Positions 4,848 through 9,728 of a DNA stretch of 38,875 nt are shown piece by piece. The notes under the pieces are model-generated. The model had not been told where the DNA came from, made no database searches, and saw only the letters and a list, made by a program, of their open reading frames with translations. The number at the start of each line of letters is the position of its first letter. Position 1 is the first letter of the stretch. The DNA comes from a virus (Duplodnaviria > Caudoviricetes), in IMG/VR virus record IMGVR_UViG_3300019874_000014, positions 1-38,875 of that record; one strand, written 5' to 3'. The position numbers and the translations under genes are program-made.

Positions 4848-5001
4848 CGGGGGACTCTTTCTTCACTCGACTTCGCCACACCACGGCCCAACCCAGGAAC
4901 AGCTCTCGCTGACAACCGCACGACTCCGCGGCCACTCGCTCGCATTCGGCCGCGAGCCATGCCGGATCGCGCCAGTGCTGGTGCTCGAAGATGCGGTTCA
5001 C
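4837..5001 (-). CDS. Small hypothetical protein
   Basis: GTG start overlapping upstream TGA; fills operon gap. Confidence 0.5.
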   Translation of the reverse strand: MNRIFEHQHWRDPAWLAAECERVAAESCGCQRELFLGWAVVWRSRVKKESPDAK

Positions 5002-6584
5002 TTCCCACCTCGCGCGTTCAGCCACGATTCGTAGGCGAGTACGGCGCTGTACATGGACCCCGGAAGCCGAACGCGATCGGCCCTTGCGCCGACGACTGCA
5101 TCGACGACAGGCCGCATGGCCTCCACGTGCTCGGTGGCGAGCCTGAACTCCCGATGCAGCGCAATCACGCGCGGGTCTGACGTGGTCCAGCGGTCAGTGC
5201 CGGACCCGATGGTTTCCTCGCTGCGTGCGTCGCGCGCCTCCTCCCTCCGCATCGCCTCCCTCACCATCTTGTTCGCGGGATGCTCAAGCTCCGGAGGTAG
5301 GTCGCCGTGGGGGCCGGGAGCCAGAATGAAGACGTCGGGGGTCTTCGGGATGTCGACTGCGGCGTCATCATCGTCATCGCTGCACGCCTCTGCGAGTTTG
5401 TTACGCAGCGCAATCTCTCCCGGGAAACCACCGCAGTGCTCGTTGATATGCCGATACCAAGCCATGGCCGCCGCCACGATCGCGCGCTCCCTGTCGGCCA
5501 GAGGAGCGATGGGGGTAGCGGCGGCGCGGTCGCACATGGCCTCCGCTGCACACATGATCGAGTAAGTGTCCGGGTCACAGTCGAACATCTTCGCGATGCG
5601 CTCTATCTTAGCGATGGTTTCCGGGTGTACCGCCGGCTGAGTCGGCACCGCTGGCACCGGCACAGGTCGCTTGTGCACACTGCCGTAGCCGCGCGAGTCC
5701 GGGCAGTCAGGGTCAGCGCAGGGCTTCCCCTCGTCGGAGCGGGGCAAATCGTGCGAGCAATTCGGGCAGCGCTTGCCGTCTGGCTGTCCATTACCCCAGA
5801 CGGTTCGGGTCCCGGCGCACCTCGCGCAGACCTCGTCGGGTCGCGGCGGCTCTTCATGGGCGATGCAATCCATTCCGCACGTCGCGCAGCAACCGTCCTC
5901 ATCTGCCTTCACGTGAGGGCCGCAGTCCGGGCATGTCCAATAGCCGCGCGCCATCGGGGTACTCCCCGGGGAGCGGGGCGGCTCGTAGGGGACATAGTCG
6001 TACCCCTCGTGGTTGGATCGCTGACTGTCACGCCTGCGCTGTGCGTTAATCGCTCGCTTCCAGGTTGTCGCGGCCTCTTCCGTCATGGCGCGGATGGTTT
6101 CCTTGGCATCGTGCAGAGCGGCGTCTATCGCGGTCGTCTCTTTTTTTAGTTTCCGGATGGTTTCCGCGTCTTCGGTCATGAGCTCTCGCTGCCTCCGTAT
6201 CTCTTTCGCTTGGTTACTGTTGAGTTCCCCCAACTCCCGGAGAGTCTCGCGGGCGGATGTGAGGTCTAGTTCTGCATCGATAGCGCGCTCCTCGAAGGTG
6301 CCGGACTCGCATCGGGCGGCGTCCCTCTCCGCGACCGCTGCCGCGAGCTGGGCTCGAAGGTCGTCGCTTCCCACGTAGAGCTGGCGCCCCAGATACGCGG
6401 CAAGCACCTCCTGCCGGTATTCCGCCGTCTGCGCGTCGAGATGGCCGCGGATGTCGTCGGGGGCGGCCTTTTGCTGAACGTATAGCGAGCCATTGTTCTT
6501 GTAGATCTTGCGCGCGTAGAGCTCGCATGTGACCTCGGTGGTGGTCGCTGGTGAAGAGATGCGTTCGGTCCAGGGGGTGGTCAT
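4998..6584 (-). CDS. Large mosaic protein: coiled coil plus several Cys-rich zinc ribbons
   Basis: 528-aa ORF coupled by ATGA; heptad region then CPDC..CCATC, CARC..CPNC, CADPDC..H. Confidence 0.7.
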   Translation of the reverse strand: MTTPWTERISSPATTTEVTCELYARKIYKNNGSLYVQQKAAPDDIRGHLDAQTAEYRQEVLAAYLGRQLYVGSDDLRAQLAAAVAERDAARCESGTFEERAIDAELDLTSARETLRELGELNSNQAKEIRRQRELMTEDAETIRKLKKETTAIDAALHDAKETIRAMTEEAATTWKRAINAQRRRDSQRSNHEGYDYVPYEPPRSPGSTPMARGYWTCPDCGPHVKADEDGCCATCGMDCIAHEEPPRPDEVCARCAGTRTVWGNGQPDGKRCPNCSHDLPRSDEGKPCADPDCPDSRGYGSVHKRPVPVPAVPTQPAVHPETIAKIERIAKMFDCDPDTYSIMCAAEAMCDRAAATPIAPLADRERAIVAAAMAWYRHINEHCGGFPGEIALRNKLAEACSDDDDDAAVDIPKTPDVFILAPGPHGDLPPELEHPANKMVREAMRREEARDARSEETIGSGTDRWTTSDPRVIALHREFRLATEHVEAMRPVVDAVVGARADRVRLPGSMYSAVLAYESWLNARGGK

Positions 6585-8002
6585 TCACCCAGCTCCTCTT
6601 GGCAGTAAGCATTGAACAGCGCCCCAGGATACTCAATGCGCGCGAGCTGCACCCCGGCGGTCTTGCGCAACATCTCGGCACGTCGCTTGTGCCAGTTGCC
6701 AGGTTGCTTCCCCGGGTTGACGTGCAGCATCCCGGCGGCTTCGGCCTGCTCGATCGTGTAGCGGAGCGCCGTGGGTTTCGGGTTGCGCCGGTTCTTGGTC
6801 GTCCACTCCGCGTATCGGTCGTCCCCGCCCTCGAATTGGAAGTACTCGCAGTCCGGGTGGTTCTTCGCGCGGTCGATCAGAATGTGCGCGCCGACGCTAA
6901 CCTTGCCCTCGAAGAACGAGAGCGCATCCAGCGCCGTGGCCGCGGTTATTCCCATCTCCCGCCCACGGATGATGACGGCGAAGATAGCCTCACGCGTCCC
7001 GAACGACTTTCCGTAGAGTCTCGAATTGTGGAGGTACCCCGAAATCTTCCACGCCGCGTCGAGCGTGCGCGGCTCGAGTTCGAGCGCGAAGTCCACCGGC
7101 ACCAGGGCCAGCGCCGTCGTGGTGACCGTTTGCGTTACCTCCGCAGGCGGCGGCGCATCCTGTCCTGGTTCGCTCTTCGGCGCCTCGGGAGCGGGAGAAA
7201 TCGGGTCAAAGTCGGCATCTTCGGGAACGTCTGACATGGCTTTCGGTATCCTCTCCTCGTAAATCTTCATCCAATCGATCGGGCAGTCGTCGCGTAATCG
7301 AATCACCTGCTTCGCGAGCCGCGCCGCTGGCCCCCCCTGGAAGAGCGCCTCCTGTAGCTTCGGGGTCGTGATCTTGTCCACGTTCGCAAACACGTCCTCT
7401 AGCGTCCCGAACTTCATCAACAGCTTGGCTGCCGTCACCGGCCCGACCTTCGTCACCCCGGGCACGTTATCGCTAGAGTCGCCTTGTAGCGAAAGGCTGT
7501 CCAGTAGCATCTCAGGCGGAACGTGCCACGCCTCGATCACGTCTCCGCGCGCGAAGAATTTATCCTTCATCGGCGAATAGACACGGACCGCGTTCGCGTC
7601 GTCCACGAGCTGCAGCAGATCCTTGTCCGCGCTCGCCACCGTCACGTCCAGGCCATCCGCAACGGCCAGCTTGACCGCGCTCGCGATGACGTCATCGGAC
7701 TCCTCACCGGGGCACGATAGCAGTAGCAGCCCGTCAGCCTCCAGGCGCTCCTTCGTGCGCCGGTACTGCTCAACGAAAACGTTCGTGGGCGCGTCCCTCT
7801 GTGCCTTGTACGTCGGCAGCAGGGCCTTGCGGCGAGCGTACGGCGGCGAGTCCAGGCACACCGCTACCAGGTCGTACCCGCGGCGCATCTTGGCAATCGT
7901 CTCCACGGTGATGGAGAAGGCTTTACCGACCTCCTCGTCTCCAGAGGCATGGAACGCCGGGTAGTAAATTGACCCCAAATCGATCAGCAAAAGTTTCTTC
8001 AT
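6581..8002 (-). CDS. Fusion: PolI/FEN-type 5'-3' exonuclease (aa ~1-250) + RecT-like single-strand annealing domain (aa ~305-473)
   Basis: LLIDLGS, YKAQR, ESDDVIAS, SADKDLLQL, GDSSDNVPGVxxVGxxTAxKLL (H3TH); C-terminal GREMGITAATAL...FEGK, YTIEQAEAAGML, W...EMLRKTA...AR..YP..L...Y..EE. Confidence 0.85.
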   Translation of the reverse strand: MKKLLLIDLGSIYYPAFHASGDEEVGKAFSITVETIAKMRRGYDLVAVCLDSPPYARRKALLPTYKAQRDAPTNVFVEQYRRTKERLEADGLLLLSCPGEESDDVIASAVKLAVADGLDVTVASADKDLLQLVDDANAVRVYSPMKDKFFARGDVIEAWHVPPEMLLDSLSLQGDSSDNVPGVTKVGPVTAAKLLMKFGTLEDVFANVDKITTPKLQEALFQGGPAARLAKQVIRLRDDCPIDWMKIYEERIPKAMSDVPEDADFDPISPAPEAPKSEPGQDAPPPAEVTQTVTTTALALVPVDFALELEPRTLDAAWKISGYLHNSRLYGKSFGTREAIFAVIIRGREMGITAATALDALSFFEGKVSVGAHILIDRAKNHPDCEYFQFEGGDDRYAEWTTKNRRNPKPTALRYTIEQAEAAGMLHVNPGKQPGNWHKRRAEMLRKTAGVQLARIEYPGALFNAYCQEELGE

Positions 8003-8463
8003 GATACTTTTCTTTTTCTTCCTCTTCCGCGCTCACTCATCTCTCTCATGTTGTCCCGGTGCGTACCAAGGTGCAGATGCGCCGGGTTCACGCATGGGGG
8101 ATTGTCGCATTCGTGGAGCACATGCATTCCGTCTGGAATGGGTCCGACGTTCAGCTCCCAGCTCAAACGATGGGCAGTACGGAGCCTCTTCCTGTCTCCA
8201 CCAACTACCATAAGCATTCCATACCCGAATTTATGCGTGTAACCTGTCCATTCCCAGCACAGATCCGGGGTTCCTCGGCGAACCCTGGACCAGAATCGTT
8301 TCGCGGTATTTGCCAGAGCAGTAGCCCGGATCTCCGCCTTGGAACGACCGCGCCTCCTGCTTCTGCAGCAGGGAATACACCTAGACTGTAGGCTGTTTCT
8401 GGGGCGGCACACATAGAACTCACCACTGGGCCTAATCTCTTTGCATAGCGCGCACTGTTTCAT
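7999..8463 (-). CDS. HNH endonuclease with N-terminal Cys4 zinc finger
   Basis: RFWSRV...CWEWTG...GYG...AHRLSWEL..GPIP.GM.VLHECDNPPCVNPAHLHLGTHRDN; N-terminal CALC...F...CIPC; ATG at 8463. Confidence 0.92.
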   Translation of the reverse strand: MKQCALCKEIRPSGEFYVCRPRNSLQSRCIPCCRSRRRGRSKAEIRATALANTAKRFWSRVRRGTPDLCWEWTGYTHKFGYGMLMVVGGDRKRLRTAHRLSWELNVGPIPDGMHVLHECDNPPCVNPAHLHLGTHRDNMREMSERGRGRKRKVS

Positions 8464-8464
8464 T

Positions 8465-8824
8465 CTATGCGCGCCTCTCTTCCTTGAACCGGTACGCCAA
8501 AACCTGCGACGACAGCCCAAAGCGGTGTTCTTTCCGCAACTCCGCCGCCACGTCACAAAGCACGTCATCGCGCTCGCCGCCGCATGCCTCGATGAGCCCA
8601 GCAATAGACGGCGCGCCTTGCGCCACGACCATCGCGACCAGCCGGGTCACCAGCCGGCAGAACTCGTAGTCTTGAGCCTCTTCGGCCGTCGCCAACTTCG
8701 CGGATGAGATGGTGAGGTCCACGACGGACCCGGAAGCGCCTATCCACTGGCCGCCCTCGAGGCGAACGATGCGGTCCGTGAGTCCGCACGGAAGGTTGAA
8801 CTTCGCGTGAAGGATGGGGTTCAC
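8465..8824 (-). CDS. Hypothetical protein
   Basis: GTGA-coupled to upstream gene; stop 1 nt before HNH start. Confidence 0.6.
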   Translation of the reverse strand: MNPILHAKFNLPCGLTDRIVRLEGGQWIGASGSVVDLTISSAKLATAEEAQDYEFCRLVTRLVAMVVAQGAPSIAGLIEACGGERDDVLCDVAAELRKEHRFGLSSQVLAYRFKEERRA

Positions 8825-8997
8825 AGCGCGCCACCTTTCAGCTCCGCCAGAATCCGCTCAAATGTCTCCATGACCTTGCCCGCCGGAATCGGGTCCGTGC
8901 CGTACTGCTGGCGGTAGGTCAGCTCAGGCTCAACGACGGCGTACGGGTCAGCGGCATCGATATCCTCGTCCTCGAACCGATGCCAGGTGGTCTGCAT
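8821..8997 (-). CDS. Small acidic protein, first gene of leftward operon
   Basis: MQTTWHRFEDEDIDAADPY...; ATG 8997 preferred because upstream in-frame sequence is the AT-rich promoter region. Confidence 0.6.
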   Translation of the reverse strand: MQTTWHRFEDEDIDAADPYAVVEPELTYRQQYGTDPIPAGKVMETFERILAELKGGAL

Positions 8998-9024
8998 GAA
9001 AAGTACATCCCACGGCGCGGACGG

Positions 9025-9053
9025 AGTGTAAACATCTTTTCTTACTGTTTGAA
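9025..9053 (-). promoter_or_regulatory. Putative leftward sigma70-type promoter
   Basis: On minus strand TTCAAA-17 nt-TACACT, ~28 nt upstream of ATG 8997. Confidence 0.5.
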
Positions 9054-9058
9054 AAGAT
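9034..9058. promoter_or_regulatory. Inverted repeat, putative operator
   Basis: ATCTTTTC-ttactgttt-GAAAAGAT in divergent intergenic region. Confidence 0.6.
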
Positions 9059-9061
9059 AGC

Positions 9062-9090
9062 TTGACCATCGCGAATTCATGCCAGATGCT
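9062..9090 (+). promoter_or_regulatory. Putative rightward promoter, probably leaderless transcript
   Basis: TTGACC-17 nt-GATGCT ending 7 nt before ATG 9098; no clear SD. Confidence 0.45.
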
Positions 9091-9097
9091 TGAGAAC

Positions 9098-9319
9098 ATG
9101 AAGAGCCGAGCCGTTGTGACCCTGCGTGGCTTCTGTCGCCCAAAGAGTGGAGCGCGTCCACGTGTCCGGATCTGTGATCTGGCGCGGGACCTAGAAGTGG
9201 CTCCGCAGCAGGTTCAGGGGTGGCTATCCGAAAAGTACCGCCCGAAGCTCGAGGTAATGCTCGAGCTGGAAAAGTTGCTCGGCATTCCGGTGCCCGATTG
9301 GACGAAGGAGACGCGATGA
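9098..9319 (+). CDS. XRE/Cro-like HTH protein
   Basis: DLARDLEVAPQQVQGWLSEKYRPKLEVMLELEKLLGIP. Confidence 0.85.
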   Translation: MKSRAVVTLRGFCRPKSGARPRVRICDLARDLEVAPQQVQGWLSEKYRPKLEVMLELEKLLGIPVPDWTKETR

Positions 9320-9537
9320 AGGTCCATATGCTCGTTGCCAAAGCGAAGCGCGAGGGGAAGCTCGCTGTCGCTTCCGGGGTGAAGCGGCAGACCGTCGCGA
9401 ACTGGGAACGCGGCCTAGGCGGCCCCCAGTCGAAACACATCGTGCTCATGTCGCGCCTGGCTCCGTTCAAGAAAAACGGGGATGCGGCGCTTCAGCAGCT
9501 CCGCGACTGGCGTCTCGATCCGACGCCACCCAAATGA
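9316..9537 (+). CDS. Second XRE/Cro-like HTH protein
   Basis: KLAVASGVKRQTVANWERG...P; AAGGAG SD and ATGA overlap. Confidence 0.75.
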   Translation: MKVHMLVAKAKREGKLAVASGVKRQTVANWERGLGGPQSKHIVLMSRLAPFKKNGDAALQQLRDWRLDPTPPK

Positions 9538-9728
9538 TCCTCACCGCGCGCCGCACCTATCGCGAAGTGGCCGCGCTTCTCGGCATCTCGCACGCCCAAG
9601 TCATCATCGACGAACGCCGCGCGCTGGCCAAGCTGCGCGCGGCTCTGGAGGAATCCCATGAATCCCTATCTCGACACGACGCCTCAGTGCCAACGGCTCT
9701 CGCTCGCACCCCGAAAGACGGCGGTTGA
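9534..9728 (+). CDS. Stand-alone sigma70 region-4-like HTH protein
   Basis: RTYREVAALLGISHAQVIIDERRALAKLR matches TxxEVxxxxxxSxxxVxxxExRALxKLR. Confidence 0.75.
   Translation: MILTARRTYREVAALLGISHAQVIIDERRALAKLRAALEESHESLSRHDASVPTALARTPKDGG

Follow-up and report, generated by a model that had tools for sequence, protein, structure and literature searches.

Single-strand annealing in eukaryotes is performed by Exo1 and Rad52, separate proteins that act with many cofactors, and the T7 protein gp2.5 is of the SSB (single-stranded DNA-binding) type, with an OB fold. Recombination of phage T7 requires gp6, an exonuclease of the flap endonuclease (FEN) type that gp2.5 stimulates (PMC4124056), so enzymes of this type can work in phage recombination. 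How exonuclease and annealase cooperate, and why they bind 1:1 despite the greater need for annealase, is open in the field, and no structure of a full exonuclease–annealase complex has been solved (PMC11611040). Here we analyse gene P0001 of an uncultured soil phage (6581..8002, minus strand; coordinates refer to the window, the whole 38,875-base stretch, a complete linear virus record, IMGVR_UViG_3300019874_000014), whose product of 473 amino acids (aa) links a FEN-type 5'-3' nuclease with a domain whose predicted fold is that of the Red-beta/RecT annealing proteins. The original prediction, made from the letters of the sequence, was of a one-gene recombinase. With a probability of about 0.65, we read the protein as a single-chain exonuclease–annealase acting as a single-strand-annealing recombinase, given its conservation, the exchange of its C-terminal module and the absence of PD-(D/E)xK partner nucleases from near-complete genomes that carry the fusion.

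Domain composition of the fusion protein

The interval 6581..8002 is, as predicted, a single open reading frame (ORF) of 473 codons free of stops on the minus strand, the plus strand being interrupted by stops. Guanine-plus-cytosine (GC) content at third codon positions stays at 0.62-0.90 throughout, with its minimum in the linker, and contigs of the possible source soil sample, which are not independent, cross the linker with zero differences.

Residues 1-250 (7253..8002, minus strand) form a FEN/PolI-type 5' nuclease domain, an assignment upheld both by Pfam profile and by predicted fold. The scores are 86.7 bits for 5_3_exonuc_N (PF02739; cut-off 34.3) and 83 bits for 5_3_exonuc/H3TH (PF01367; cut-off 40), and both domains are matched at E<=0.001 by all 100 members of our alignment. 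The predicted model has the FEN fold with its H3TH element, and its nuclease half matches ExoIX in Foldseek (E 3e-17, template modelling (TM) score 0.90) and gives Z scores of 26-30 to plastid PEN1, FenA, ExoIX and T5 D15. The acids that had been singled out, D8, D51, E101, D103, D104, D126, D128, D175 and D178, all stand at the positions given, and the arch motif is Y65-K-A-Q-R69; the nine acids with Y65, K66 and R69 are conserved in 150/150 representatives (six of which have E at D51) and in 115-116 of 116 homologues. With the acidic metal ligands present at both sites, along with the arch Lys/Arg, the active site is intact as judged from its residues, and a metal-dependent exonuclease or flap activity is putative. 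We take the invariant GDxxD pair, by its motif, to be the counterpart of D201/D204 in T5. Loss of those two residues removes much of the T5 exonuclease while flap activity stays, and loss of site II aspartates defines the ExoIX (Xni) subclass (PMC2650880); the fusion retains D128, D175 and D178 and hence lies outside that subclass, which favours exonuclease activity. It is not a DNA polymerase I: we found no PF00476 domain in the protein and no DNA_pol_A in 44/44 virus records of our context set (42 fused and 2 unfused; 24 are at least 90% complete, 23 of these fused).

The acidic, proline-rich linker that had been proposed was borne out as aa 251-304 (7091..7252, minus strand), with a net charge of -7 and low model confidence; in 129 relatives linker length ranges from 39 to 203 aa.

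Residues 305-473 (6584..7090, minus strand) contain the RecT-like motifs on which the original prediction had relied (G347-R-E-M-G351, E365-G-K, Y415-TIEQAEAA-G424, W437, M444-L, R455, P459, Y466 and E469-E470), all conserved across 116 full-length homologues, and profile and predicted fold agree with it that this is a RecT/Red-beta-type domain. The PHROG match is Bet-like (E 3e-4), and Pfam RecT (PF03837) is matched at E<=0.001 by 96/100 alignment members, its cut-off being passed by 5/15 fused viral relatives with up to 34 bits. The AlphaFold model of the whole protein, from a 100-row alignment, has a mean predicted local distance difference test (pLDDT) score of 91.8, with low confidence at about aa 260-300, and the C-terminal domain modelled alone reaches 92.8. 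Searched against the PDB with Foldseek, that domain matches only lambda Red-beta (7UJL) at E<=0.001 (3.4e-5, TM 0.57), LiRecT coming second; a second aligner gives Z 9.4 to 7UJL (root-mean-square deviation 3.7, 135 aligned), 6.5 to LiRecT and 5.0 to Rad52, with double-stranded RNA-binding domains reaching Z 6.2 across 60-75 residues. Among predicted viral structures the best match, a UniProt entry of 462 aa, takes its name solely from a PIN_53EXO domain, and RecT- and Bet-like proteins come next. The model also contains the helix, hairpin, helix, three-stranded sheet and crossing helix that define the Rad52-superfamily annealing fold (PMC9870868). The sequence profile of the domain matches 7UJL as well (E 3.8e-5) and the match stops at Red-beta residue 176, which together with the fold matches identifies aa 305-473 as equivalent to the Red-beta annealing core, whose fold they are predicted to adopt. 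After this core the median tail in 129 relatives is 3 aa, without a partner-binding C-terminal domain. Whether the two halves dock is judged differently by two models, with a predicted TM score (pTM) of 0.80 in five-model AlphaFold versus 0.53 in the ESM Atlas.

Recurrence of the fusion and exchange of its C-terminal module

A search with the C-terminal region returned 182 proteins, and 116 of the best 120 are full-length fusions; the homologues sought with the same architecture thus exist, and a two-domain order recurring in 116/120 listed matches is not due to chance. Seven shorter matches to the C-terminal domain, several starting within the linker, were set aside as apparent fragments. A profile of the nuclease domain was run over 1.84 billion representatives of 50%-identity clusters, and the best 150, down to 275 bits, comprised 129 RecT-type, 2 Sak4, 2 ERF and 3 phrog_10048 fusions, the rest being 1 PolI-like, 10 short and 3 with frameshifted-looking tails. 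Viral loci found through the C-terminal domain, some on repeated contigs, were fused in 34/39 cases, cut by the contig start in 2 and unfused in 3; a viral scan with the single protein gave none. Metagenome loci, counted with the window record excluded, were fused in 29/50, open at a contig edge in 17 and with the C-terminal domain only in 4, none being split; they include two chimeric rows (L271 and L314), in which the annealase end is in frame with bacterial peptidase or S7/dehydrogenase sequence and which we set aside as likely mis-assemblies. The arrangement that would have spoken for two genes, a FEN ORF apart from an annealase ORF, occurred in 0/50 metagenome and 0/39 viral loci. Seven ESM Atlas clusters carry the fusion, nearly all viral where the taxon is known, and among cultured phages in INPHARED 87 records match, none across >80% of the protein, the 30 matches listed covering the FEN half alone or little more.

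Public databases label the fusion proteins 5'-3' exonuclease. No published description was found by title or abstract start, and large annealase tables in supplements could list such proteins. The words 'fusion' and 'fused' do not occur in the searched text of PMC8093625, PMC2896510, PMC11611040, PMC9870868 or PMC11783212, and that of PMC12825301 has engineered fusion constructs only. The fusion is real and conserved and, apparently, undescribed in print.

The same nuclease lineage also carries other C-terminal modules, with few records for each of the rarer types. It is fused to a Sak4-type ATPase at locus L016, which has an SSB gene directly after, a form seen in five 90% clusters; to phrog_3290, 'single strand annealing protein', at L021, L022 and L202; and to ERF in 2 clusters. 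For the phrog_3290 module Pfam gave zero families, and its 'Rad52/Sak-like' label is our assumption from motifs. In P0325, P0333 and P0360 the annealase slot (aa ~305-569) holds phrog_10048 with a Cys-rich insert, a candidate new annealase family; in the ESM Atlas it matches unnamed clusters at 0.95-0.97, whereas a Sak family scores no more than 0.79 and is at most a lead. Profile-profile comparison, with shallow alignments, linked the RecT-type domain to none of phrog_3290, ERF and phrog_10048 (best probability 3.4%). When 95 nuclease domains were placed in a tree (66 fused, 18 PolI and 11 other phage FEN; a quick search over rows we chose), a branch with SH-aLRT 97 set all the fused rows apart from PolI and the other phage FENs. 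Within it each of two ERF rows pairs with a RecT-type row (96 and 99), the phrog_3290 rows group with three RecT-type rows (100), and phrog_10048 appears at three positions and Sak4 at two, so that the partners other than RecT are nested among RecT-type rows. All named swapped-in partners are annealase families, spanning two unrelated folds, which supports the recombinase reading and is the strongest functional argument for it. P0138, a row of the tree, belongs to the fused-FEN lineage and has a C-terminal part without family match, L044:6857-8431 encodes a phage FEN joined with a uracil-DNA glycosylase domain, and the viral ORFs L047:5918-7702 and L068:668-2536 have a weak NusG-like N-terminal match and a FEN domain.

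Genome content was compared in the 44 virus records, none of which has YqaJ, DUF3799 or DNA_pol_A; PDDEXK_1 is present in two, one of them unfused (G043) and the other a fused fragment (G013). In the 23 near-complete fusion genomes YqaJ, DUF3799, PDDEXK_1 and PolA are all absent (0/23), control genomes being positive in 2, 1, 10 and 11 of 14, although divergent nucleases may escape; the window record is likewise without YqaJ, DUF3799 or PDDEXK_1. A PD-(D/E)xK nuclease lies near 2/3 unfused relatives (L176 and L313); at L313 it is encoded downstream and is homologous to that of G043 (E 3e-44).

Proposed mechanism and its alternatives

As a single-chain exonuclease–annealase, the fusion would digest DNA 5'->3', starting at an end or a nick. 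Its tethered annealing cores would then oligomerise on the 3' single strand so uncovered and match it to its complement, serving to circularise the phage, form concatemers or carry out repair. Red-beta covers about 4 nt per subunit, and surplus nuclease domains would lie outside the filament, possibly trimming 5' flaps too, while additional annealase could come from an internal start.

Several points weigh against this reading. The window protein's own match to Pfam RecT (PF03837, aa 409-471, E 2e-4) scores 21.4 bits, under the cut-off of 24, and the grouping of the fused rows in the tree arises partly by construction, since the profiles that gathered these rows had been built from the rows themselves. 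The 5.4-kb fusion fragment G013 carries PDDEXK_1 (L014/G013:4730-5197) some 600 bases downstream, the sole exception, and in unfused G042, 50% complete, no PD-(D/E)xK nuclease was seen. A fixed 1:1 ratio is awkward because Red and RecET recombine less when exonuclease is in excess (PMC11611040), and PolI-type FENs are slower than T5 FEN (PMC2650880), so long resection is not assured. The domain at the C-terminus of Red-beta is required for recombination in vivo (PMC9870868), and by analogy its absence is a caution for any claim to a tool; how the fusion would cope with host SSB is left unexplained by the model.

In the main rival reading the order of events would be reversed, with annealing on the lagging strand or once a strand has been displaced, host enzymes doing the resection and the FEN domain mainly clearing leftover 5' flaps or primers. 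When strands anneal after 5' resection in the classical way, the flaps left behind are 3' ones, and FENs do not cut those, which counts against this order. In its favour, FEN-fold enzymes are structure-specific flap cutters, FenA and ExoIX are among the nearest solved folds, the same role has been proposed for T7 gp6 in recombination (PMC4124056), and one nuclease per filament subunit far exceeds the need of DNA ends (PMC11611040). As the site II acids linked to exonuclease activity (PMC2650880) are invariant and the fusion sits where PD-(D/E)xK resection nucleases are absent, we regard trimming as the main role as unlikely. We find it quite improbable that the C-terminal domain merely binds single-stranded DNA or oligomerises to yield a processive nuclease for host DNA breakdown or phage replication. 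The stimulation of T7 gp6 by gp2.5 in host DNA breakdown (PMC4124056) would fit, as would the pTM of 0.80 with its hint of domain docking, but the Atlas value of 0.53 leaves docking unsettled, PolA is absent from the 44 records, and the swapped-in partners with names are all annealases, even RecA-like Sak4 of unrelated fold. To an assembly chimera or read-through artefact we give next to no credence: chimeric contigs do exist among the metagenome loci (L271 and L314), but the single ORF in 116/120 listed homologues, 129/150 representatives, and 34/39 and 29/50 loci has already refuted this for the RecT type.

A further idea, compatible with the single-chain exonuclease–annealase, is that one gene gives two products, a start early in the linker adding an annealase-only protein in excess. 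In 129 representatives linker Met codons cluster at offsets 10-24 after the nuclease (rate 0.043-0.050 versus ~0.015 farther on) and are preceded by GGAG-like sequence. Shine-Dalgarno-like pairing before them, in 33/39 genes with a Met in one set and 20/26 in another, was stronger than in codon-order shuffles (0/500 and 0/400 as strong), and its energy comes near that of true gene starts (-6.0 versus -6.5 kcal/mol). Synonymous resampling with the protein fixed mostly matches the signal, however (p 0.15 for the mean and 0.036 for strong sites in the first set, 0.65 and 0.88 in the second), so the signal is explained equally well by an acidic peptide motif or by an ancestral start that survives as a relic. 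A linker Met is missing from 12/65 genes, with ATG scored and GTG/TTG unscored, and in the window gene the candidate start, in-frame Met256 (7235-7237; with its purine-rich stretch, 7235..7258, minus strand), is weak (p 0.185). An internal start is accordingly a tentative possibility. Doubtful too is the widest form of the proposal, a widespread undescribed class in which one FEN chassis takes interchangeable annealases (Red-beta/RecT, ERF, phrog_3290 and Sak4), an internal start provides surplus annealase, phrog_10048 is a new annealase, and one gene would suffice for double-stranded DNA recombineering.

Gene neighbourhood and relation to known systems

The fusion gene is tightly packed between its neighbours. 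The stop of an upstream HNH endonuclease gene (7999..8463, minus strand) overlaps the fusion start (ATGA), and the fusion stop overlaps in the same way (ATGA) the start of a downstream 528-aa ORF (4998..6584, minus strand) without Pfam or PHROG match, which is coiled-coil-like with several Cys-pair motifs by eye. No sigma-70 promoter match was found within 6300-9700, and a search of alternative frames in the linker for a nested gene gave stretches of at most 27 codons after an in-linker start. Pfam and PHROG matches to terminase, portal, major head protein, endolysin and repressor-like genes identify a phage, whose GC content of 61-68% suggests use in GC-rich hosts and is the sole basis of that idea. 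In the early region, window:9658-10047 encodes a stand-alone protein with the DnaA C-terminal helix-turn-helix (Pfam E 3e-19). Just before the terminase, window:13621-21650 holds glycosyltransferases (one an 804-aa GT2+GT1/4 protein), an NAD-dependent epimerase, an FkbM methyltransferase and a B12-binding radical SAM protein, with modification of surface or virion glycans a possible role.

Integrase occurs in 19/44 records and SSB in 5/44, neither being in the window record. A family of small proteins is present in 19/44 records, and several of its members end in an acidic tail like that of SSB; as these records are only 19 and the window record lacks the family, we rejected the notion that the fusion always stands beside such a protein. 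The family (L191:6516-7001 and 18 other records) has no Pfam match and in several loci lies directly downstream of the fusion; it may substitute for the missing SSB contact.

As a natural covalent version of an exonuclease–annealase pair, the fusion offers a simple object for structural and hand-off tests and a one-gene candidate for recombineering, a compact genome-editing tool. It would also add the FEN fold to the nucleases of Red-beta-type phage annealing systems and break the rule that annealing cores are N-terminal, and unidentified C-terminal modules in its slot can be read as candidate annealases.

By family and predicted fold, the fusion resembles lambda Red (Exo and Red-beta) and Rac RecE with RecT, the two-component exonuclease–annealase recombinases (EATR/SynExo), in coupling a 5'->3' nuclease to a Red-beta/RecT-fold annealing domain. 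The two likewise stand at 1:1, which is the ratio of the lambda complex when purified (PMC11611040), and are encoded in a divergent early phage region adjoining repressor-like genes. By this analogy we infer a recombination function like that of Red or RecET. The fusion is not a member of these systems, however, being one chain where they have two proteins, with a FEN-fold instead of a PD-(D/E)xK nuclease and without Red-beta's Exo/SSB-binding C-terminal domain; moreover, its annealing core is C-terminal, whereas described annealases hold theirs in the first ~180 aa (PMC11783212). Exo1 and Rad52 belong to the same two superfamilies, a distant fold likeness only (Z 13.4 and 5.0, respectively). 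Fold and catalytic residues are shared with the PolI 5' nuclease, FenA, SaFEN, T5 D15 and ExoIX, but the fusion has an annealase in place of the Klenow part of PolI, retains site II unlike ExoIX, and branches apart from the 18 PolI and 11 other phage FEN rows. T7 likewise couples a FEN-type nuclease, needed for recombination, to a single-strand binding/annealing protein (PMC4124056), although gp6 and gp2.5 are separate and T7 has its own polymerase, whereas the fusion phages are without a PolA domain in the 44 records. Finally, the annealase families of Sak4 with SSB (HK620) and ERF (P22), described as free proteins unfused to a nuclease in the literature consulted, serve here as alternative C-terminal modules, and just as Sak4 needs SSB (PMC5928155), the Sak4 fusion of L016 is followed by an SSB gene.

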